NCBI GenBank assembly: GCA_030867685.1
Contig: JAQOWU010000007.1
Coordinates: forward strand, 186,001 to 250,000
From: Wickerhamiella versatilis
Lineage: Eukaryota
Direction: 5' to 3'
Length of the DNA stretch: 64,000 nucleotides
Both the position numbers and the translations under genes were made by a program. This document shows positions 1,967 through 33,016 of this stretch, one piece after another (within the stretch, counting starts at the first letter, position 1; every line of letters begins with the position of its first letter). The notes under the pieces were generated by a model. The model searched no databases. It saw only the letters and a list, made by a program, of their open reading frames with translations, and had not been told where the DNA came from.

Positions 1967-3607
1967 ATGTGGCATAGGGGAAAGGTATGGAGCCTGGGAA
2001 TTCGCAAATTTTGTTTCAGGGCTCCAGTGGTAAGGAAGGCCAGTCTGGTCACTCCCATCGCGGCAGCATTTATAGCCGGGGTAGCATCGGCAACTTTGTT
2101 GTCGTTAAAAGCCGAGAAGCCACAAAAAAGCTCTTCTAGCACACTATCTCTAACATCGATGCCTGATCCGATATATGCGTCTGCGCTGGAAGAGCAAAAA
2201 GCTGTCTCTCGTATTAAAGAAATTGTGGGAGAGGAGAATGTTACGAGTGAGGCCGGGGTCCTGGAACTACATGCAGATTCACCCTGGCAGACTTGGCATC
2301 CTGAACGGGATGAGTGGCCACGGACTGTGGTCTACCCCAATAGCACGGAACAAGTTTCTCAGATCATGCAAGTGTGCAATGAATACCGTGTACCTGTCAC
2401 ACCTTACTCGGCTGGTACTTCGTTGGAAGGGCATTTTTCACCGGTTTATAGCGGTATATCGCTTGACATGAGCAACATGGATCAGGTTTTGGCTGTACAT
2501 AGTGAGGATCTGGATGTTGTGGTTCAGCCTGCTGTGGGATGGGAGGCACTTAATGAGACACTAAAAGAACACGGTATGATGTTTGGTCCCGATCCAGGCC
2601 CCGGTGCTCAAATTGGGGGAATGATTGGTACTTCGTGTTCAGGCACCAATGCTTATAGATATGGTACAATGAGGCAAAATGTGGTAAATCTCACGGTGGT
2701 GCTTGCCGACGGGACGGTCGTCAAAACTAGACAGCGGCCTCGAAAATCCAGTGCTGGCTACGCATTGACAGAACTAATTGTTGGATCTGAGGGAACGCTC
2801 GGTATTGTTACAGAAGCTACCCTTAAGATATATCCAATACCTCCTATTTATCGAGTTGGAGTAATGACATTTGCCAAAATTAAGGACGCTACTGACACAG
2901 TACACAGTCTTTTTAAGTCGGGTATCTTTCTTGACGCTATTGAGCTTTTGGACGACGAGCAGATGAAGCGAATAAATCAAGCTGGCAGTACCGACCGTAC
3001 GTGGGAGGAAAAGCACACCCTCCTTTTGAGATTTGCCGGCTCCTCGGAGAATGCTGTAGAAAGTCAGATCGAGGATGTAAAGACTGTTGCAAAGCAAAAT
3101 GAGTTTCTTAATTTTCAGTTCGCCCATGACAAAGAGGAAACAGAAGATCTCTGGGTCGCAAGAAAGTCTGCAGCATGGTCAGTATTCGTTACAATGCCTC
3201 CCAAGCATAAAATATGGTCGACTGATGTGGCTGTCCCATTATCGGCACTTACGAAAATAATTGTAGAGACCAAACTTGATTTGGTTTGCAGTGGTCTTAA
3301 TGGAGTTATTGTGGGACACGTTGGCGATGGCAATTTCCATGCAGTGATCACATATGATCCCGCCACCCAGAAAAAGGAAACGGAGGCTGTTGTGGACCGA
3401 ATGATTGAGCGTGCGATGGCTCTGGAAGGTACATGTACCGGTGAGCATGGGGTGGGCATCGGAAAGCGACGCTTTATTCTTGAAGAGCTCGGGAAGCCAG
3501 CAATTGATACGATGAGAGAACTTAAAAGGGGACTCGATCCTAATTTCATTCTCAACCCAGGAAAAATTTTTAGCGTCTCTCCCTCACAGGATATCCCAAA
3601 AAAATAA
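1967..3607 (+). CDS. DLD1: Mitochondrial D-lactate dehydrogenase (FAD-linked oxidase)
   Basis: Basic presequence-like N-terminus. Motifs GTSLEGH, DPGPGAQIGGM, GSEGTLG, HVGDGNFH, GEHGVGIGK, LNPGKIF. Confidence 0.9.
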   Translation: MWHRGKVWSLGIRKFCFRAPVVRKASLVTPIAAAFIAGVASATLLSLKAEKPQKSSSSTLSLTSMPDPIYASALEEQKAVSRIKEIVGEENVTSEAGVLELHADSPWQTWHPERDEWPRTVVYPNSTEQVSQIMQVCNEYRVPVTPYSAGTSLEGHFSPVYSGISLDMSNMDQVLAVHSEDLDVVVQPAVGWEALNETLKEHGMMFGPDPGPGAQIGGMIGTSCSGTNAYRYGTMRQNVVNLTVVLADGTVVKTRQRPRKSSAGYALTELIVGSEGTLGIVTEATLKIYPIPPIYRVGVMTFAKIKDATDTVHSLFKSGIFLDAIELLDDEQMKRINQAGSTDRTWEEKHTLLLRFAGSSENAVESQIEDVKTVAKQNEFLNFQFAHDKEETEDLWVARKSAAWSVFVTMPPKHKIWSTDVAVPLSALTKIIVETKLDLVCSGLNGVIVGHVGDGNFHAVITYDPATQKKETEAVVDRMIERAMALEGTCTGEHGVGIGKRRFILEELGKPAIDTMRELKRGLDPNFILNPGKIFSVSPSQDIPKK

Positions 3608-4799
3608 TTGGATCGTCAGTGTTTGTTCGTACAATGGTTGAATGATGATGACAACAAGTAATTAGTTGCTCGTTGATTTGAATAGTATCAATTCAGATAG
3701 CTTTATTTCTCACTTAGCGTACGTTATCAGCTAAGATTGGTGGCTAATTGATCAATGCAGCAATATCGTGGTAGTAAAATTAATATTGTCAACTAATGAG
3801 ATTGGTATGTGCCATCTAGCCTTTGTCTATTAAATCTTACACGCTTATCATTAGCTTACGCGAGTCTCAGAGTGACATAATGTTGGGTCATAATGGGAGA
3901 TATCTTGATGATCAATTCGATAGTTGCACTTCCATACTTTAGTTGTTTTTGTTGTATATCCTGATTGAACGGAGTCTCAAGTAGTGCAGGGTGCGTAGCA
4001 CTGTGTTTTATTAAGGAAAGGATTAGTCGGGAACTAGGTACTATATTTCACGAGCTACCCTACTCTATGATGCCTGTTAAATCTATTTTGCACTTATCAT
4101 AGGGCCTTTGAAAAATAATATAGAGGAACATGGAACCAGAAGCTTCGGAAAAAGGTACAGTTTATCATTACTTCAGCTACCACGGTATATGGTGATGACC
4201 AAACAACCACCTAAGAGCTGGAAATAGATGATCTAAGAAGAGAAATATGACGAATACTTCAACTGGTAAATCATGCACCGAACAGCCTCGAGAAAGTACC
4301 GCTATATTAGATAATCGGATGTCACCGTAGGGCTGATCGCCTGACGATTCGTAGACAATTCAGAGAATCAGAATAAAAAGCGGCGTGACCTCCATAAGTA
4401 GATGCAGTAGCCTGTACTCTTCAAGTCTCTCTATATGATATACATCTAATGTTAAATAATCGACACATGCCGATCGATCTGCATAACATGACGAATATCA
4501 TTAATTACCGGAAATGATCGGAGATTGCTGGACAACTCTGACAATTTGAATTAGCATGGTGACTACAACAACAGAAATTTCCTATTTGACCTTTTAAGTT
4601 ATGTTGCAGTTTGATCGTCTAAGTGGTTTTGAAGGCAACCTTCTTGGCTTTGGGAGATTCACCAGGGGTGTCTATGCATAGTTGATATAATCATCGATTG
4701 AGATTATGTTATGTCAGTGTGATTTCAAAGTGCCGCAATGTGAGAAACTATATAAAGAGAACTATCACCACGATTTAACACCTCTCATCTTAATTTCCC

Positions 4800-5363
4800 A
4801 TGTTCCTTAAATTGTTGTTAGCAGCAGGATTAGCAGCTGCGGTTCCTGCGGTGGAAAGAAGAGAAGCTAGTATTGCAACTCCAACTCTGACCAGCGTGAG
4901 TGTTGGTTCTATTGATCCAAGCCTATTTCCAAGTCTTGCCCAAGCTGAGAAGGCAGTTCCCACTTCCACCAGTAGTGGCAGCTCTGGTGGTTCTGGTGGT
5001 CCTTTTGAGTGGCTGGAAGAAAAGGCCGAGGAGGTTGCTAAAATCCTGGTAGGTGCTGGTGTATCTACTGGTGTTGCAACAGCTGCGGCAGCAGCCGCGG
5101 TAAATGCAGCAGCAGTAGCATTGGCCGGTGTAGGCACGGCTGTAGGCGCGGCTTCTGTGGGGTCGGTAGTTGCAGGCGCTGTGGCGTCAGCCACCGCCGC
5201 TGCCCAGGCAGCTGGAGCAACTGGGCTGGCTGCAGCCATTGCTGGTACGGCAGCCACAATTATTGTAGGAGTTAGTCTTGGCATCACTGCTCAGGGAGCT
5301 CTTGTAGCTGCAGCGTTGGCAGCTCTCTATGAATATATTGAGTCTGCTGGACTCGTGCCTTAA
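4800..5363 (+). CDS. Secreted Ala/Gly/Val-rich hydrophobic protein A (unknown family)
   Basis: TATATAAA about 50 bp upstream. Signal peptide, VERR-EA dibasic site, Ser/Thr linker, then about 110 aa of nearly uncharged Ala/Gly/Val sequence. Confidence 0.8.
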   Translation: MFLKLLLAAGLAAAVPAVERREASIATPTLTSVSVGSIDPSLFPSLAQAEKAVPTSTSSGSSGGSGGPFEWLEEKAEEVAKILVGAGVSTGVATAAAAAAVNAAAVALAGVGTAVGAASVGSVVAGAVASATAAAQAAGATGLAAAIAGTAATIIVGVSLGITAQGALVAAALAALYEYIESAGLVP

Positions 5364-5698
5364 AACCTACGATGGCGTGTGCCTTTATTCTCTCGCGCTC
5401 TTAGTTTATAACTTTTATGTGTGAACTGAATGGCTACTTTTCTTAATAGTATGCTACTAGAAATCAAAAATATATGTTCTCACCGGATTGGAATGTAAAT
5501 TAGTATTCCGCTCGCCCAACCTATATAATTATCAAGAGCCAGAGATTATATACACCTCAAGTTCCGTCCGTACCTTTGATAGATTTCTCTGTTCTTATGT
5601 TTTATAAACATAGACGGTTTTCTTGACAGGGTATGCTCACTTCCAAAATATTCTTGAATAAGCTGTAGATGATACCTTCCATCTCACTTATTTGAATC

Positions 5699-6163
5699 CT
5701 AAGTAAAGTAACAAATGTAGTCAGTTCCTCCTGATGCAACATAGCAGACCGCAACCCACAAAATATCGAATACTACGAAAGGACCTATTGCTAAAGGAAG
5801 TACTGCAGCTCCAGCAGCGGCAACAATTCCTGGAATAGCGGCAGCAGATACACCTAATCCAGTCAGCACAGTATTTACCTGTACCAGACTAATCCCACCT
5901 ACCAGCAATAGCATTGCTGCAATCGCCGCTGATGCTGCAACACTGCCGGTAACACCTAGCGGAAGAGCAGTATCTGTTACAGTAGCTGCTGCATTTGCCA
6001 GCGCAAGCGCCGTAGATCCAATTACACACCCTACTACTGCTAATCCTGCAAGAGCAGCGGCAGCTTCTACACTTGTGCTGACGCCTGTGGCCAGTGCGGC
6101 ACCTACCACTGCACTAATTGTTGTGACGGTGGCAGCCTTCGTAGCGACAGCTATAGCAGCTGC
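5699..6163 (-). pseudogene. Start-less 3' copy (B') of Ala/Gly-rich protein B
   Basis: Aligns to the last ~150 aa of 6528..7748 (IAVATKAA...LLLVGGISLxQxNTVLxGLGVS...LWVxxC-x10-C). No ATG or signal peptide; frame is still open. Confidence 0.8.
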
Positions 6164-6281
6164 CGCGAGTACAGCAGCCACAATTATTGTGGGAATTGGT
6201 CTTGGAATTGCTGCTCAGGGAGCTCTTGTAGCTGCCGCGCTTGCAGCTCTACTCGAAATCGTTGGTACTGGTGGATTTTAA
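6156..6281 (+). pseudogene. Start-less 3' copy (A') of Ala/Gly-rich protein A
   Basis: TAATIIVGIGLGIAAQGALVAAALAALLEIVGTGGF versus TAATIIVGVSLGITAQGALVAAALAALYEYIESAGLVP in A. Confidence 0.8.
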
Positions 6282-6527
6282 CCTTAAATACTAAATAGTG
6301 TTGTCTCATTTCCTCGATGTCTTGTTAAATAGAAATTGGGAGTGTATCTTGAACCTGCTTTATTATAGACATATTCCTCGAGTTCTGACTATTGCTAAAT
6401 TTGTCTTCTCATGTGTAGCTCTATAGATATTGAATTTTCTTGACATGGTACAAGAATTTTATTAAAAATACATTCTCAGTTCTGCTTGTGTATATAACAT
6501 CTATTAGTCTGTATCCCTGGTTAATTC

Positions 6528-7748
6528 TCAACTCAAATCGCAAAATACATCAGCCCCCTCCGTAGAAATAAGGCAAATTGTGACCCACAAAGTATTAAAT
6601 ACAACGACAGGAGCAACTGCCAAGGGGAGTACTGCTGCTCCAGCCGCTGCTACAATTGCTGGAATGGCGGAGAAGGATACACCCAATCCGGCGAGTACAG
6701 TATTTATCTGTGCCAGACTAATTCCACCGACCAGCAGTAGCGTTGCTGCAATTGCTGCTGATGCTGCTACAGTGCCGGTAACACCCAGCGAAAGGGCAGT
6801 ACCTGCTACAGTAGCTGCTGCACCAGCCAGTCCAAGGGCAGTAGATCCGATCACACCTCCTACTACTAGTAGTCCACCGAGCCCTGCTGCTGCTGCACCA
6901 GTTACACTGATGCCTGTGGCCAGTGCGGCACCCACCACTGCGGTAATTGAAGTGTCCGCGGCAGCCTTAGTAGCAACAGCAATACCGGCTGCCAATGCAG
7001 TTGCCAACGCAGTTCCGGTACCAGCTGCCGCAAGAACTGCTTGGGTTGCCACAAGTGCAGTTGCGGCAGCTGCTGAAGACACACCAAGACCAACCAGCGT
7101 GGAAATTGCACCAGAAATGCCCACACCACTTACAATTTGAGCTAGAGCAGTAACGCCCAGTTTTGCAGCTGTATCCAGGGATACTCCTGTACCAACAGCA
7201 ACTGCTGCCGCTGCCGCTGCAGCGCCTGTTGCCCCTGTGGTAGCTAATGCTCCAGCAATACCAACAGAAATCGCTCCACCTATGGTTGCAGCCACGCCGA
7301 TAGCTACAGCCGAGGTATCTGCAATTCCCTTGGCAGCTACGGCAGCCGCGGCCTTGGCAGCTACATCAGCAATCGCCGCTACGGAGGCACCAGCTGGTAA
7401 GCTCGCGAGGCCCGCAACAGCAACAGGACCAGCAGCAAGTGCTGCAGCCTGTGCTGCTTCAGCACTCAAGCCCAATCCAATGGCCACTTCAATGGCCGCC
7501 TGAATTGCTTGCTGCTCACCATTACTAGTTGAAGTAGCCTTAGGGGTGCTGATAGTGGGCGTCGAGCCTGAAGATAGCAGCTGGATACTTGTTGGGGTTG
7601 CAAGTTTCTGAATATTACCATCGGTGGAAACCGGTGCTGTGCCGGTGCTCAGGACAACACTAGTCTCTGTTGTTGTCGGTACAGCAGCAGCGCTTATGCA
7701 CGACATAACAGCCACGAGCGTGACGGCCAGCTTCGAGAAAAACTGCAT
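6528..7748 (-). CDS. Secreted Ala/Gly/Val-rich helical-repeat protein B (unknown family)
   Basis: Signal peptide, Ser/Thr-rich linker, about 320 aa hydrophobic region with recurring GxG(V/L/I)S-x2-AA turns, C-terminal C-x10-C. TATA-like element near 7781-7787. Confidence 0.8.
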   Translation of the reverse strand: MQFFSKLAVTLVAVMSCISAAAVPTTTETSVVLSTGTAPVSTDGNIQKLATPTSIQLLSSGSTPTISTPKATSTSNGEQQAIQAAIEVAIGLGLSAEAAQAAALAAGPVAVAGLASLPAGASVAAIADVAAKAAAAVAAKGIADTSAVAIGVAATIGGAISVGIAGALATTGATGAAAAAAAVAVGTGVSLDTAAKLGVTALAQIVSGVGISGAISTLVGLGVSSAAAATALVATQAVLAAAGTGTALATALAAGIAVATKAAADTSITAVVGAALATGISVTGAAAAGLGGLLVVGGVIGSTALGLAGAAATVAGTALSLGVTGTVAASAAIAATLLLVGGISLAQINTVLAGLGVSFSAIPAIVAAAGAAVLPLAVAPVVVFNTLWVTICLISTEGADVFCDLS

Positions 7749-9249
7749 TTGGTATACTGACGTGGTTATCTTGCCAGTGCTTTATATCAACCGCTTAAAT
7801 TAATGATGCAAATCTTGCTCAGTGCAGATCATTCACATCCGAGTTATTTAATCACGTCACTGTTGGAAAACTTTACCTTTCGGACCATGCAGAATTTGTA
7901 GAAGCATCTTGGCGCCTGGAAATTTCCTATTCAGATATCTGTGTACAACGCTTGCCCGTCGAAAGCAGTACTATTTTAGACTTGACCCCAATCGCTGCAA
8001 CCGCAAATTGCATGCATCCAGCCATGTGCAAGATCGCCGAGGAAATTAGTAATCTTCATATTATTACTATGCTGGTGCTAATAAGGGGTAAATCAAGGTT
8101 TCCTCTATATTCTCGGGTATATTTATGGTAAAATGTAGCCTAGCAGCGAGAAGGTGACTCTACCAGTTATTTTCCGTCCTTGAAACACTAGATCGATCAA
8201 TCTTACGTGCACACCTCTCTATTCGCCGATTGCTTGCAGCTTTTTGCAGATGATTATAGAGACTCCTCGGACATCTCCATCAGGATAGCCGGGAATTAAC
8301 ATAATATTAGGCTATTTAAAAATTGATTTGGCAGATTGATAACTTGATAACTCATAGCTATGATTTATAGAATCTGCGTATCAGTGGGGCTATTTTTGAG
8401 GTCATTGATTTTGTAGGGCACTCTGGGACACTTCCCTCTTGAGTACCTGCTACTATGTTTACTCCATAGCGTAGAATCTTTTGTTACGCTTGTGCAGAAT
8501 ATGCTAAGAAGTATTGTCTAAATATACAACCTGGCTGGTTATGTAGGCCAGTAGCAATTTCAAGCTTTTCACTGTAGTATTCAAATTTGGACGCCGCTGG
8601 TCAAGCACAGCTAGTAGCATGGAGAAGGCCCAATCCTACGCTTGTAAAGATTTGTAATATCGGAATATAATGTAGAATCTGACGTGGTAAGGGGTTTGAA
8701 AGATATGCATTTACGAATTGAAAGAGTAAGATCAGCACTGTAGAGAGCAACCGTAATAGAAGCTCTCTTGGGAACACTTGCATATCATAGATGCGCAGGT
8801 TTCGGACTATGGCAAAATTGTGGGGTAACGATGGACTTTGGCCGGACGTATAGCGTATTTCGCGTATGATGTCATTACGTGCTTGCCGTTGTGTGGTAAT
8901 AAGGAATGTGATAACTTAGTATCTCTAGATGAAGTGTTAGTTTATAGTTTCTTGAGAGACACGCAAAGTTGAGATTTTACTGGTGCATTTACCGAGCTCA
9001 TCCTCGATTGGTTTATCCCACTGATCTTCACGGAAATATTAGTCATGTAAATCTAGATCACGTCAACAAAGTCAGCCATGTAATTGACGAGACCTCGTGA
9101 ACATTTTTGTAATTGAGGGGATCCAATTTTTTTTTCGCTATTCTACACTTGCTTCCCTCCTCGATATTTTTTAGAGCCTGAATTTGTGCCAGACTGAGGG
9201 AACATTATCGGCAAATTCAACCTCTCTGCTTTGTTATCAGCATTTTTCT

Positions 9250-10428
9250 TTAAGAGGAAAATGTCACATTGTGGAACCTGGTAAGCTGAAATGGTGATAA
9301 ATCAAACTCAGATTGCTCCCCACATATTTTCTCCACCACTGCCTTACCGACGCCTGCGGAGTCTTTGAATCGCTGGCCGCATGAGGACACAAGGAACACA
9401 TTTGGCATATTCGGATGATAATCCAAAATGAAATTGTTGTCCACTGGAACCTTTCTCAAATGCAAATCACTCTTCAACACTCTATCTGAAACACCCGTTA
9501 GCTGCCACTTGGTGCTGGCATTTGGGTCACCTCCTACTTTTACTACATCTTCTCCATGTAAAGGTGGTAATACATAAAATGCGTCTCCTTGGCGATGCTC
9601 CCCGATGAATGCGGGAGAGCCACTCGGGAAATTCTGCTCTTCATCGAGGGCAAACCAAAATTCCTGTTGGCGAATGACATGAAAATATTTCTCGTAATAA
9701 CTTCCGAGAAGACGAGAAATCCAGGATCCTGTAGCTATCCCTTGCCGAGCCCTGATTCGTAAATTTTCAGTTTGAACGTTCACCTTGAACTCTTGGTCTC
9801 CTACGAATCTCCCGAATCTCCCGAATAGCTGGCCCATGCTCCCAGCGGTTTCTTCTAGGTAAAGTTTGGCTCCACACGACTGGGCATGCTCAAGCTGTAC
9901 CCTGATACAATTTTCTGAATACAAATAGCCTGACTCTGCTTCATAATAAGCCGTGACATCGTTTCTCATATGCGCAAACTGCGGATGCTGTGAAATTAAT
10001 CTTTGCAAATCAACCGTTTAGTATCTTATTCCAAAACTTGAAGCTATATTCGAGCTACTCCGTAAAGATTCTTCATCCATACCTGTCACGACAGCACCGC
10101 ATTGCTCAAAAAGTTTCGTACCACTTTCCTCCTCTAATTCCCTCCAGCGCTTGTGAGATGCTATCGTGAAGGGCAAATACGACTCATTTTCTCCTATATT
10201 CAGGTATGTTATATCAGTATTTTGGTATGTATGCTCTTGTTCTGGTGGTGGAGAGCTCCCAGTGCCTGCCACATCCTCTTGCACAGGTTCAAGAGGAGCT
10301 CGGTTCTTTGGAGCGCTCACGCCCACCACATCAATGCCTCTTATAGCAAGTTGATCTACTATCGCTGAGCCCATCGCACCTAGTCCTACTACGACAATAT
10401 CACACGTTATCTGGTCCGCTCTCTCCAT
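9250..10428 (-). pseudogene. Sarcosine oxidase / N-methyl-L-tryptophan oxidase (SolA-like) FAD oxidoreductase, disrupted
   Basis: DIVVVGLGAMGSA dinucleotide motif. The two ORFs are in the same frame, split by TAA at 10018-10020. The C-terminal GHGFK motif has degraded to CGQRFK. Confidence 0.78.
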
Positions 10429-10903
10429 ATTGGTCCTTATGACTTAGTCATATATCTATCTTACATTATCCACCCAGATTCAATTAGTCTCAAGGAGTGT
10501 GGTAAATTATGGCTATTTTGCAGGGCATTTAGTTGATACGAGTGTATGGAAGGACAAGACGTAGCAGAGCTCCCGTTTGTTTAATCACTCTATTGCTGGA
10601 GTTATTTCAGCTGGTTCAGTAAACAATAGCAGAAGTGATATCAGTCAGTGGGTTATCTTGCAAGCTTAATGGTACCTATGCACATGTATTTGCTTTGTAG
10701 TATCAAAATAATAAGCCACGACACAGCTTGTGCGTAACTCCGATTACAAATATAGATAAATACTCTGCCCCTGTGAAGTGTTATCTCATCCGATAGACAC
10801 CAAAAAGGCAAATTCTATTAATTTAGCACAATGGGTTTACTGAAGTGCAAACCCCGATACATAAATCTTCATGACAACAAGTTCCCAGGCGCCGAATAGA
10901 TTG

Positions 10904-26737: not shown

Positions 26738-28711
26738 ATGGCACCTATCAGAGGTGTTGAGCGTAAAGCAGCATTAGCATGTGATGCATGTCGCCAGCGG
26801 AAGATACGTTGTGATAGCTCAAGACCGGTATGTGGGTCTTGTAGAGATTCTCGAGTAGTATGTGCTTACACGCCGACTACACGCCCAACCAAAGCGGACT
26901 GGAGATACGAGGAGCTCTCACAAAAGCTAAGTAACATTGAAGCAATATTGATGAACCGTCTGGTGAAACCGTCTGACTCTGGAAATATAAAAGAGCTTAT
27001 CGCGGATAATAATGCAGCTCCGGAGATGAACCCTGCTGAGCAAGAAATTGTCGCCAGGTCTGAGGCACCTTTATTCAATGACGTAGTCAAATTTGTTGTG
27101 AGAGATTTGGGTCTCAATAATTTTGGCTGCTCACTTACAGTGCTCTCATATCTGAGCAAATCAATTCAACAATCTGACACACTTCAGAGGCTGAGATCTT
27201 TGTCTAAGCATATAATGCAAAAAAGAACACCAGTAAATTATAGACTCGAGAGCAATGTGGGCCGTCAGGAATTAGATGTGAAACTGGTAAAGTGGTCTAT
27301 CGAAAGACACTGTGAGCGGTTGCAAGCGGCAAATCCCGATAACCCTGATATTCCTGATCATGAGAAAGTTGCACAAATTCTCCCTAAAAGATCTACGGAT
27401 ATGGTTTTGCGTTTTCTCATGACTTCCCGCGATTTCGAATCAGATGCGTGGGAGCAAATGTCTCCTTGGTTGAGGACGGGATTCGAGGTAGCTGCGGTGA
27501 TAGAAACCTTCTACGCTGCTCAATTTGCTGGTAATACTATTGGGATACCGTTTCCCGAGGAATTTTGTGAAGACCAAAAGGCTATTGCCATAAACATTGC
27601 GATTGAGTTTCTAGAGTCATTGGAGTTCTTGCCATCTAGCTTTTTGCTTGTGAGATGTGGTATGGTAATCATATGGCTTCTGAACAAGTTCTCCTTTTTA
27701 CCCTCTGCCTCTGTGTTTCATGCCACATTGCTTTCAAAGGCACGATCAATTGGAATGGATCGAAAAGATGTTAACGAGAAGTTTCCATTAAATATGGCTG
27801 TACAAAGATTATTTGTGTGGCGCATGCTTTTAGTGTTTCAGCAGACTTCAGCTCTGTTTAGACTTGAGGAGCCAATCATTGTTCGGCCAGATTCCATAAC
27901 CACTTATTTCGGCGCAAAGAGTCCAGCAGATCATAGTATCGGGATTCACAGCATATACAACGAAGCAAGGGAGAAACTATTCTCAGTCAATAACGCTAAA
28001 TATTCACCAAAAACTCTCTATAACACAATACTGAGGCTTGACACAGATATCTCAATTTGGTACAGCAAATTACCTGGACACTATCATCAAGGACCTTTTG
28101 ACTACCGCTCTCCAAACACAGTAGATTTTGTCGAATGGCTGAAATCTCATTACATACCAGTGACAAGGCTGAAGTATCTTATTACCTTGCTTATTATTCA
28201 TAGCATTCCGGCATTTTATCCAAATTATCTACCTGCATCATTTCCGAGACCATCTCTTGAAATTGTCACTGAATGTGCCTTTAAGATAATTGATATTGCC
28301 ACAAAGGAGGTACAAATTCACCGTTCCTTGAGCAATGCAGCCTGCAATGTTGTCACCAGCGCAGTGATCACTCTTTTTTGTAGGCAAGTGCGATACCCTC
28401 AGCACCAGCAAGAGAATCAGCAGAATTTGGAGATACTACAGGTTAATATGATATATTTAATTGGCCACGCTGTATTTCTAGGAACAGACACGTCAAAAAT
28501 TCAGGTTTTCGAATTGTGGAAAGGACTTATGGAAATCATGAGTGACTTATTACTCAAACCGTCAATACCACAGCAGCCAGAAAAAGATCTTAACGCTGAA
28601 GCATATTCGTTTTTTGATGGATTTGCACCTTCCTTTCTACCGAACGTTGGTGATGAGAATATGCTGTTAAGCGAATACGATACTGAAAACAACAATTGCA
28701 TAATCAATTGA
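26738..28711 (+). CDS. Zn(II)2Cys6 transcription factor
   Basis: ACDACRQRKIRCDSSRPVCGSCRDSRVVCAY, followed by a fungal TF middle region. Confidence 0.9.
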   Translation: MAPIRGVERKAALACDACRQRKIRCDSSRPVCGSCRDSRVVCAYTPTTRPTKADWRYEELSQKLSNIEAILMNRLVKPSDSGNIKELIADNNAAPEMNPAEQEIVARSEAPLFNDVVKFVVRDLGLNNFGCSLTVLSYLSKSIQQSDTLQRLRSLSKHIMQKRTPVNYRLESNVGRQELDVKLVKWSIERHCERLQAANPDNPDIPDHEKVAQILPKRSTDMVLRFLMTSRDFESDAWEQMSPWLRTGFEVAAVIETFYAAQFAGNTIGIPFPEEFCEDQKAIAINIAIEFLESLEFLPSSFLLVRCGMVIIWLLNKFSFLPSASVFHATLLSKARSIGMDRKDVNEKFPLNMAVQRLFVWRMLLVFQQTSALFRLEEPIIVRPDSITTYFGAKSPADHSIGIHSIYNEAREKLFSVNNAKYSPKTLYNTILRLDTDISIWYSKLPGHYHQGPFDYRSPNTVDFVEWLKSHYIPVTRLKYLITLLIIHSIPAFYPNYLPASFPRPSLEIVTECAFKIIDIATKEVQIHRSLSNAACNVVTSAVITLFCRQVRYPQHQQENQQNLEILQVNMIYLIGHAVFLGTDTSKIQVFELWKGLMEIMSDLLLKPSIPQQPEKDLNAEAYSFFDGFAPSFLPNVGDENMLLSEYDTENNNCIIN

Positions 28712-28796: not shown

Positions 28797-29981
28797 ATGA
28801 CAAAAAAAGAATATAGGAAGCAAAACGGGGAGATCATATCGTATCGTTTCTGCTCCTCTGCTACTCCCCCTTGTGTTTCCTGCAATACAATCCGGTCCAT
28901 CAGTTGGCACAAAAGTCCGATAGGTAGGGGCAGAGTGTGTAATTGGTGTCACCTACGGCACGAGGAACATGGGAGCTTCTGTCAAGATTGTGGGTATATC
29001 CCGTTATCCGAAGAAGTAACTAATGATTGTCTACAATACGAGTGCACTGGAGCTATACAGAAGAGTCCACCCAGCCAGCCCACAAAAAAATGCATGTCCT
29101 GCCACCAAGTACCCTTGGGCTGGATGGCTAGTTGGGATAACGCGTCAGGTCAATTGTGTCCACAGTGTGGAGATCGTTATAAGCATGTTAATATGTACTG
29201 TGATGTACCATATTGCCACTTCGTTCCGTTTCAGTACCAGATTGAAAAGGCAGGAAAGAAGGGGTTATTTAATTGTCTCCAATGCGGACACGGAATCCAA
29301 AAAAATGATGCTCTGACCCCTGAAAAAAGAGGTGATGATGTTGTGGCCCAGGACCCACCAGGCATTGATAATCCACCCCTCAACCTCTCGGATGCTGGTG
29401 GACTTCAGGCAGGCACTAGACGCTCACGAGGTAGAAAAGCTGGAGCTGGACCTTCGGGGCCCTGTCTTGCCTGTGGCACTACAGATACCGTGAAATGGCG
29501 CCCGAGCTGGGATAGTAAACAAGGTGTGCTCTGCAATCCCTGCGGCAAACGCCACATAAAACATCCCGCACACTGCACATTATGCGGCTTCATACCGAAC
29601 AAAAGGGAGTGGGAGAAAATGGAAATTATGGTCAGAATAGGAGAGCAAGGGGAGAAACTCTTTTGGTGCCCTACCTGTAGTCGTCAAACCGGTGGCGATC
29701 AATATACTGTTGTTTGGACACCGCCTCCTGATAAAGCTAGCCCGCGCATATGCTTTTCATGTGGAGAAAACAATACCCTTACATGGCACCAAAGCTGGGA
29801 ACCGGGTCAGATGCTGTGCAATCCCTGTGGAGTTCGCTGGAGGAACATGGGTGTGCACTGCGACTGTGGTTATGTTCCCTTCAAGTCACAGTTGGATAAA
29901 GCCCTGCCTGACGAGCAGGGTAATCAAACTATCCAATGTAAAAAATGCGAAAAAGTGATGACCGTCCATGTGCCGAATTAG
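28797..29981 (+). CDS. Cys-rich protein with four tandem Ash1-like GATA-type zinc modules, probably 5'-truncated
   Basis: Four repeats of Cx2C...W-x2-S(W)...(L/V)Cx2C-x2-R...C-x1-4-C(G/H)(F/Y)(I/V)P...Cx2-4C. Confidence 0.7.
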   Translation: MTKKEYRKQNGEIISYRFCSSATPPCVSCNTIRSISWHKSPIGRGRVCNWCHLRHEEHGSFCQDCGYIPLSEEVTNDCLQYECTGAIQKSPPSQPTKKCMSCHQVPLGWMASWDNASGQLCPQCGDRYKHVNMYCDVPYCHFVPFQYQIEKAGKKGLFNCLQCGHGIQKNDALTPEKRGDDVVAQDPPGIDNPPLNLSDAGGLQAGTRRSRGRKAGAGPSGPCLACGTTDTVKWRPSWDSKQGVLCNPCGKRHIKHPAHCTLCGFIPNKREWEKMEIMVRIGEQGEKLFWCPTCSRQTGGDQYTVVWTPPPDKASPRICFSCGENNTLTWHQSWEPGQMLCNPCGVRWRNMGVHCDCGYVPFKSQLDKALPDEQGNQTIQCKKCEKVMTVHVPN

Positions 29982-32497: not shown

Positions 32498-33016
32498 ATG
32501 TACGCTTCTACCCTCTCTTTGGCTCTTCTTTCCCTGGCTTCCGCCGAAACACCTCAAGGTAACAGCCAGAATCATTATAATGACCTCACGGGTGCCCAGA
32601 ACGGTATGATTAACCACCAACAGGTTCAGGATACCCTTAACAACCAACTTAAGGGCAACGGTGACGTCCATGCAAATGCCGATCGGATGGCCGCCTACAT
32701 CACTGGTGCTGATTCGCAGATTGACAACGCTATTGCAACGTCATCCAAGGCACTTGCTCCTCTTACCGGAGGATTGAGTGAAGCAATTGGAAATGTTCTC
32801 CTGGGACCCTTCGTACAGTCGGTAACAAACGGTGCAGAGGTTTTTCTTTCTAACATGGTCGGTGGCGCTGCCGACACAATGGATGCAGAGATGGTTGGCC
32901 GTTTGACTGGAGACTACTCGCGTCTTTCAGAGCTCTCCTCCAAGAGTAACGTCGACACCTCCAAATTGCAAGACCTCAACAAGCAAATTCAGAATACCCT
33001 GCCAAAGTCAAAATAG
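32498..33016 (+). CDS. Small secreted helical protein, single-unit paralog of 41808..42764 (resembles Candida Pbr1 from memory)
   Basis: TATATAA at about 32454 and a signal peptide. Shares ITGADSQIDNAIAT and LGPFVQSVTNGAEVF with the 41808 gene. Confidence 0.8.
   Translation: MYASTLSLALLSLASAETPQGNSQNHYNDLTGAQNGMINHQQVQDTLNNQLKGNGDVHANADRMAAYITGADSQIDNAIATSSKALAPLTGGLSEAIGNVLLGPFVQSVTNGAEVFLSNMVGGAADTMDAEMVGRLTGDYSRLSELSSKSNVDTSKLQDLNKQIQNTLPKSK

Follow-up and report, generated by a model that had tools for sequence, protein, structure and literature searches.

What do two neighbouring genes encode whose products combine a signal-like start with a long, almost charge-free domain of alanine, glycine and valine, and do they belong together? 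This question is raised by a pair of genes, here termed A and B, in a stretch of 64,000 nucleotides from Wickerhamiella versatilis (contig JAQOWU010000007.1, positions 186,001 to 250,000 of the forward strand; henceforth the window). Gene A (4800-5363, forward strand) is an open reading frame (ORF) of 187 amino acids and gene B (6528-7748, reverse strand) an ORF of 406 amino acids, both in the standard code. A preliminary description of this sequence had proposed that they form a convergent pair, and indeed the ORFs proved to be real, with coordinates and orientation confirmed. Our main finding is that B belongs to a small orphan family, and that the locus carries the traces of its own duplication. 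As to the nature of its product, we tentatively read B as a lineage-restricted, O-glycosylated, hydrophobic cell-surface or membrane-associated secretory protein of a budding-yeast-like organism, a reading to which we assign a probability of roughly 40%.

B is a constrained gene of a tiny family

A phmmer search with B over 1,835,955,588 cluster representatives returned a single match, P0003, which is a fragment of 295 amino acids (E = 3.7e-34). A search with P0003 led on to P0004, a full-length protein of 409 amino acids whose cluster also contains P0005 and P0006; the source of P0003 to P0006 is the Logan/ENA assemblies. Of 406 positions, 184 (45%) carry the same residue in B and P0004, and the alignment runs without a single gap across residues 76-391 (316 residues). 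The identity is spread evenly, amounting to 42-55% per region, except for the last 15 residues, where it is 33%. A signal-like start and a junction at which AAA is followed by V(P/A)TTT are common to both proteins. A pair of cysteines near the C-terminus is likewise kept in B, in P0004 and in B', a partial copy of B that lies between the two genes; the loop between these cysteines spans ten residues (C-x10-C) in B and B' and eleven (C-x11-C) in P0004. As defined here, the B family comprises B, B' and P0003-P0006, and is marked by the signal-like start, a Ser/Thr linker, a gapless helical domain of ~316 residues and the C-x10/11-C loop. All of these features are present in B, P0004 and P0005, while B' retains only the last ~150 residues. 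Where B has a CTG codon, the relative has Leu or Ile, which indicates that the standard code is adequate.

The family appears to be small wherever we looked. Within the 64-kb window, tblastn and a six-frame search with a hidden Markov model (HMM) found only B and B'. A word-indexed homologue search gave no match for B or A among 8000 scored candidates, a weak negative in which low-complexity words dominate, and scans of metagenome contigs brought up no relative.

Comparison of B with B' by the Nei-Gojobori method (NG86) gave a ratio of nonsynonymous to synonymous substitution rates (dN/dS, or omega) of 0.25-0.29 at a dS of 0.56-0.66, which means that B' was constrained for most of its history. 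In a control over all six frames, omega was lowest in the frame of B (0.25), followed by the antisense frame that shares its wobble positions (0.33), and the other four frames reached 1.16-1.63. As the frame opposite B is also low, a low dN/dS alone does not pick the coding strand here. Among the indels listed for related strains, the four that fall within ORFs, of which B has two and B' one, all have a length divisible by 3, as compared to none of the eight intergenic ones. We conclude that B is a real, constrained and conserved gene of a tiny family.

The preliminary description had attributed a signal peptide, a Ser/Thr linker and an almost charge-free Ala/Gly/Val domain to A and B alike, and the composition of both proteins bears this out, the starts being signal-like as judged by eye. 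In B, the signal-peptide-like segment (7683-7748, reverse strand; residues 1-22) ends in AAA before VP and shares 12 of its 22 residues with P0004. It is followed on the same strand by the Ser/Thr-rich linker (7524-7682; residues 23-75), which is presumably O-mannosylated, and by the Ala/Gly/Val-rich domain (6576-7523; residues 76-391), which corresponds to the gapless region and holds ~14 short predicted helices with G-x-G turns. The protein ends in a polar, acidic Cys loop (6540-6575; residues 392-403), and the C-x10-C spacing described for it was found again as C392-x10-C403 in B and C157-x10-C168 in B'. The residues A, G, V, S, T, L and I make up 87% of B, which has only 19 charged residues, and 28 of its first 80 residues are Ser or Thr. 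Mature B would have a mass of ~35 kDa, an isoelectric point (pI) of 4.2 and a grand average of hydropathy (GRAVY) of 1.17. B contains neither an Arg nor a dibasic pair, and of its three Cys one is inside the signal segment, leaving two in the mature protein.

All six copies of a turn motif that had been quoted for B could be located, at residues 90, 185, 219, 277, 320 and 353. The pattern G-x-G-[VLI]-S is clearly enriched in the B domain, with five occurrences against 0.1 expected, a number reached by none of 1000 shuffles. A periodicity analysis detected no strong repeat period.

AlphaFold2 (AF2) models are all-helical but of low confidence, with a mean predicted local distance difference test score (pLDDT) of 44.7 for B alone and of 49.5 for P0004 with a five-row alignment. 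The only moderately confident region comprises residues 71-240 of the P0004 model, with block pLDDT values of 56-82. The predicted helices are 10-30 residues long, mostly 15-20, and are separated by turns of 3-6 residues without polar loops. The two halves of the domain differ in charge. In the first half, P0004 has 29 charged residues out of 165 and B has nine, the lost charges being mostly Ala in B; the second half is nearly charge-free in both. Charges kept between the two proteins are D128, K132, K196, K261/262 and D265/266. Since the N-terminal half is charged in P0004 and these charges are mostly replaced by Ala in B, this half is probably an amphipathic, extramembranous helical bundle that turned alanine-rich in the B lineage; that it is modelled with moderate confidence, unlike the rest, agrees with a place outside the membrane.

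Gene A, the relic between the genes, and possible transcripts

Protein A is built along similar lines. Its hydrophobic signal-like segment (4800-4850, forward strand; residues 1-17, by eye) is followed by an RR-EA site (4857-4868; R20-R21-E22-A23), exactly as had been noted before, and then by a Ser/Thr/Gly linker (residues 24-69) and an acidic helix plus Ala/Gly/Val domain (5007-5360; residues 70-187), all on the forward strand. The dibasic pair followed by an X-Ala dipeptide after the signal is the signature of Kex2/Ste13 processing; it is present in A only, and cleavage at this site is a prediction from the sequence. The seven residues that dominate B account for 81% of A, which has 17 charged residues and 17 Ser or Thr among its first 80 residues. 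Mature A would have a mass of ~15 kDa, a pI of 4.1 (the computed pI values span 4.1-4.4), a GRAVY of 0.88 and no Cys, and it ends in a polar YEYIESAGLVP tail. Opposite the two genes lie antisense ORFs rich in Ala, Pro and Thr, at 4790-5284 on the reverse strand opposite A and at 6664-7140 on the forward strand opposite B. These are open because GCN-rich coding DNA keeps the opposite strand free of stops.

The preliminary description had aligned A by eye to the first repeats of B, but this alignment turned out to be insignificant. BLASTP of A against B gave an E value of 13, and hhalign of A against the B family a probability of ~1%. With the B-family HMM, 158 of 500 segment-shuffled A sequences scored at least as high as real A, and over 686 frames of the window the A frame was not recovered at E <= 10. 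The Smith-Waterman z score for A against B (3.1-3.5) is like that obtained when one half of B is set against the other (3.4), compared to 21 for true orthologous halves. A is thus not a member of the B family. Judging by its sequence, it shares a local style with B, and common ancestry is not demonstrable.

The DNA between A and B contains the remains of a second copy of the pair. B' (5699-6164, reverse strand) is a copy of the 3' part of B, in which 5754-6164 matches 6583-6993 with 79.9% identity over 412 columns. It adjoins A' (6169-6281, forward strand), a copy of the 3' end of A, in which 6169-6250 matches 5245-5326 with 87.8% identity over 82 nt and which has its own stop at 6279-6281. 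The two convergent spacers, from the stop of A to that of B' (5364-5698) and from the stop of A' to that of B (6282-6527), have retained a residual colinear similarity, with a local score of 36 against 19.8 +/- 2.5 in shuffles, none of 300 of which reached 36. This chimeric B'/A' relic between A and B shows that the convergent unit was duplicated in tandem and that both inner 5' halves were then lost. The simplest history starts from a single A> <B unit, the tandem duplication of which would have given A> <B' followed by A'> <B, with a later deletion of both inner 5' halves together with the shared promoter region. The duplication of the unit shows that A and B travelled together once; that they work jointly does not follow from it, and their adjacency is documented only in strains that are ~97% identical.

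The decayed relic at the centre of the locus continues to change from one strain to another. In a related strain (DNA run X18), there are 26 additional letters precisely where B' meets A' (6155-6164) and an 18-nt deletion at 5915 inside B'. The frame of B' is open from 5699 to 6214, and it has no start codon or signal segment. B' was rejected as a gene, as self-comparison identified it as a start-less 3' copy fused directly to the A' relic. A 71-amino-acid peptide starting from an internal ATG of B' was rejected as well, the 18-nt deletion of the related strain being placed at that ATG, and inspection of 6215-6527 by eye yielded no upstream exon for B'.

The evidence on transcription is mixed. 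Support comes from run X20, which is labelled as RNA by a tool's guess only; no RNA run is among the sequencing runs listed for the stretch. Its contigs are shaped like genes. One contig (1899-3857) consists of a DLD-like ORF with short flanks at a depth of 3.5-9.1, a second (4733-6022, depth 9.8) begins 67 nt before the ATG of A, and a third (6485-8334) covers B at a depth of 64.9, with no contig over 3858-4732 or 6023-6484. An Illumina adapter remnant is found at 6485, 43 nt past the stop of B, and the 3' end of the B mRNA is probably near this position, within the spacer 6282-6527. The contigs fit the idea that they are transcripts, with B as the most abundant. The contig over B also extends 586 nt upstream of the B ATG (7749-8334), with a TATA-like GATATAAAG only ~35 nt upstream; the 586-nt stretch may belong to a long leader or to an upstream transcript of its own.

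These data also bear on the question of whether A is a functional gene at all. Conceivably, only B is functional, and A arose recently as an ORF specific to this lineage or is a leftover that does little or nothing; its likeness to B would then reflect nothing more than Ala-codon-rich sequence and a local motif style. Consistent with this, A is missed by the B-family HMM, neither the 8000 candidates that were scored nor the metagenome scan yielded a relative of it, and GCN-rich DNA keeps several frames open, including the antisense ORFs of 164 and 158 amino acids. The searches with A are hampered by its low complexity, however, which makes this negative weak. Moreover, a signal-like start, a linker and a stop all belong to A itself, its 3' end survives at 88% in the older copy A', none of the indels listed for two related strains is inside A, and the X20 contig starts just before its ATG. 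We regard a non-functional A as quite unlikely.

The possible nature of B

No known family accounts for these proteins. At the Pfam-A gathering score there was no match: B had none at E <= 1, P0004 none at E <= 10, and A only two sub-threshold rows (E 0.22 and 0.66), a negative that includes the SRP1/TIP1, HsbA and killer-toxin families. A sequence-profile search of the PDB gave no matches at E <= 10, the ESM Atlas no usable match for B or P0004, and Foldseek, with low-confidence models, nothing at E <= 0.001. The check for a known cell-wall or lipid-body family, carried out through Pfam, the PDB profile search and Foldseek, thus ended without a confident match, and no other observation that the preliminary description had named as refuting was made in the data covered, which for A-B adjacency are strains ~97% identical. 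VIA-align returned designed or generic helical repeats only, the best with Z scores of 9.8 (7udk_A) and 9.4 (7udo_A; root-mean-square deviation of 5.2 over 156 residues), both below the noise level of ~13 that the tool itself states for helical repeats. The matched region of the model has a pLDDT below 50, and the confident residues 76-240 were barely covered. De novo designed helical repeat proteins are thus the best structural neighbours of B, whose C-terminal half AF2 models as stacked helical hairpins, but with Z below the noise level and a low pLDDT we make no functional inference from this likeness. Keyword searches of the literature, and a term look-up that reached the reference-list passages of PMC12715866, found no description of such proteins, with the limit that keywords miss a family that has no name. 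To this extent the idea of secretory-type proteins from a new family is supported, as the Pfam, PDB-profile and Atlas searches gave no match and the structural searches only generic helical-repeat folds.

From the build of B we infer secretion, glycosylation, a disulfide bond, a location and a role. A cleaved signal peptide would take B into the endoplasmic reticulum (ER), and the Ser/Thr linker would become O-mannosylated to form a hydrophilic stalk. The remainder would be an acidic array of short helices, rich in Ala, Gly and Val and with G-x-G turns between them. Its N-terminal half, still charged in P0004, may form an extracellular amphipathic helical bundle, and its almost charge-free C-terminal half may reside in or on a hydrophobic phase, which could be the outside of the plasma membrane, the cell wall, or the interface between the cell and air or liquid. 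A disulfide-bonded hairpin on the extracellular side would close the C-terminus. The role of such a protein would be structural or interfacial, providing surface hydrophobicity or a coat, and not enzymatic. By analogy of build, A may be included in this reading. A hydrophobic coat or surface-active protein was the alternative offered in the preliminary description, and we consider it more economical than the pore former that was proposed alongside it.

Among known systems, some fungal surface proteins come close to A and B. Hydrophobins, the Rep1 repellent peptides of Ustilago and hydrophobic yeast wall mannoproteins resemble A and B in their signal peptide, their small to medium size and their strongly hydrophobic mature part, and they share lineage-specific multigene loci and an interfacial role of the kind proposed here. 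In contrast to these proteins, B lacks multiple Kex2 sites, the domain of A and B is predicted to be helical instead of a beta barrel or amyloid, and there is no sequence or Pfam relation. Hydrophobins have eight conserved Cys that form four disulfides; no eight-Cys pattern is present in A (no Cys) or B (two Cys when mature), and neither matches them in Pfam. By inspection, A and B also lack the terminal hydrophobic tail of wall proteins of the glycosylphosphatidylinositol (GPI) type. Mannoproteins of the SRP1/TIP1-TIR type likewise combine a signal peptide with Ser/Thr- and Ala-rich low complexity, and some of them are expressed conditionally. A and B differ from these in having no Pfam match and no tandem Ser/Ala repeats, and the B domain is gapless relative to P0004 over its 316 residues, which points to a defined fold.

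Several observations weigh against B as a hydrophobic surface protein. The structure models with their mean pLDDT of 44.7 and 49.5 are poor, and by inspection the GPI-type tail is missing. As A has no detected relatives, its inclusion has to rely on composition and build. Codon usage is like the background of the window, with no bias of the kind seen at high expression. In the raw RNA run X24, the DLD-like gene reached a summed depth of ~35, whereas A and B remained at 0 to ~0.5. The X24 reads are ~5% diverged from the window at a cut-off of 92%, so that silent genes, missing genes and genes of excessive divergence look the same in this sample. If both X20 and X24 are taken at face value, expression of A and B depends on condition or strain. 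Lastly, an integral membrane protein would agree just as well with the GRAVY of 1.17 and with the three segments that come out near 0 kcal/mol.

This last point leads to the main rival explanation, namely that B is an integral membrane protein. The stalk and the N-terminal half would be exposed to the outside, and the C-terminal half would cross the plasma or ER membrane with marginally hydrophobic helices, even in number, so that the Cys loop also comes to lie outside; the protein might serve as a scaffold, sensor or channel. A length-corrected, approximate Hessa scale gives three segments of B between -0.01 and 0.27 kcal/mol and two of P0004 at -0.41 and -0.59, and all of these lie in the C-terminal half, which is nearly charge-free in both proteins; together with the high GRAVY of mature B, this speaks for membrane insertion. 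However, a plain 19-residue window yields no segment below 0 kcal/mol, the predicted helices are short and linked by turns of 3-6 residues with no polar loops, and there is no cytosolic tail. The Hessa-type scan is itself insensitive, as a transporter-like ORF in the same window gives only three segments at or below 0.5, and it therefore does not separate a membrane-embedded domain from a merely hydrophobic one. On balance, we find an integral membrane protein somewhat unlikely.

The pore former of the preliminary description had been likened to circular bacteriocins and glycine-zipper proteins, with which A and B share small-residue helices parted by Gly-containing turns. Both likenesses fail. 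Circular, saposin-fold bacteriocins are small cationic peptides of ~60-70 amino acids with a compact fold of four to five helices, whereas mature A (15 kDa, pI 4.1) and mature B (35 kDa, pI 4.2) are larger, acidic and eukaryotic, with a Sec signal. The GxxxG motif of glycine zippers is depleted in the B domain, with one occurrence against 5.9 +/- 2.1 in shuffles (two against 4.3 in P0004), and in A it is not enriched (three against 1.8 expected, equalled by 248 of 1000 shuffles).

A related possibility is that A, B or both are chromosomal membrane-active toxins of the killer type, possibly acting jointly, with A matured at RR-EA by Kex2/Ste13 and small-residue helical hairpins entering target membranes. 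K1-type ionophoric killer preprotoxins are indeed secreted, Kex2-processed, acidic and membrane-active, and the signal-like start of A has RR-EA just behind it. Low pI and high hydrophobicity would be compatible with acidic yeast killer proteins, marginally hydrophobic hairpins could cross the translocon and insert later, and the pair was duplicated as a unit of which one copy decayed. Against this stand the lack of similarity to any Pfam family, toxins included, or any PDB chain, the depletion of GxxxG, and the lack of a dibasic site in B. Furthermore, the proteins show neither sequence similarity to K1-type preprotoxins nor their alpha/gamma/beta layout, A and B are chromosomal and not on double-stranded RNA, no immunity logic or determinant is evident, the homology of A to B is not significant, their adjacency is documented in the ~97% identical strains only, and B is under ordinary purifying selection. 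We see no positive sign of a killer-type toxin, alone or together with A, and consider it very unlikely.

Neighbouring genes and significance

The genes around A and B give no hint of their function. Upstream of A lie an Scs7-like gene (474-1499) and the DLD-like gene (1967-3607), and beyond B lies a gene for a DAO-type flavin adenine dinucleotide (FAD) oxidoreductase (9250-10443, reverse strand). The latter is interrupted by a single in-frame TAA at 10018-10020, which separates an N-terminal part with GxGxxG (10018-10443) from the remainder (9250-10017); the gene could be a pseudogene, could be read through, or could contain a sequencing error. An X20 contig runs over it from 9118 to 10000 at a depth of 17.9. 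Farther away, an unannotated, secreted-looking ORF of 172 amino acids (32498-33016, forward strand) combines a signal-like start with a body rich in Gln, Asn, Ser and Ala, and Pfam gave no match for it at E <= 0.001. A further ORF of 394 amino acids (28797-29981, forward strand) contains several CxxC...W...CxxC repeats that by eye resemble GATA-type zinc fingers, and it adjoins a Zn2Cys6-like ORF (26738-28711).

At the very least, the present analysis defines a protein family that had not been annotated, whose architecture is clear and for which the history of the locus is documented. Should B be an ordinary lineage-specific wall or membrane glycoprotein, its interest would be modest. A bolder idea, which we consider speculative and unlikely, is that budding yeasts export via Sec a new class of proteins, anionic, ultra-hydrophobic and built from helical hairpins, to which A and B would belong. 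Their marginal helices would escape integration and then enter foreign membranes, as a chromosomal killer system with A as the Kex2-matured partner of B, or enter the air-liquid interface as a biosurfactant. It is rare for a secreted protein to have a GRAVY above 1 and hardly any charge. If true, such export followed by partitioning would solve the task in a new way, with no relation to hydrophobins, K1-type toxins or bacteriocins, and if B is truly exported and not integrated into the membrane, it would be a natural test case for the passage of marginally hydrophobic helices through the Sec61 translocon. Metagenomes from food fermentations contain the organism, and in such fermentations a new hydrophobic surface protein or membrane-active protein could bear on film formation or microbial competition.

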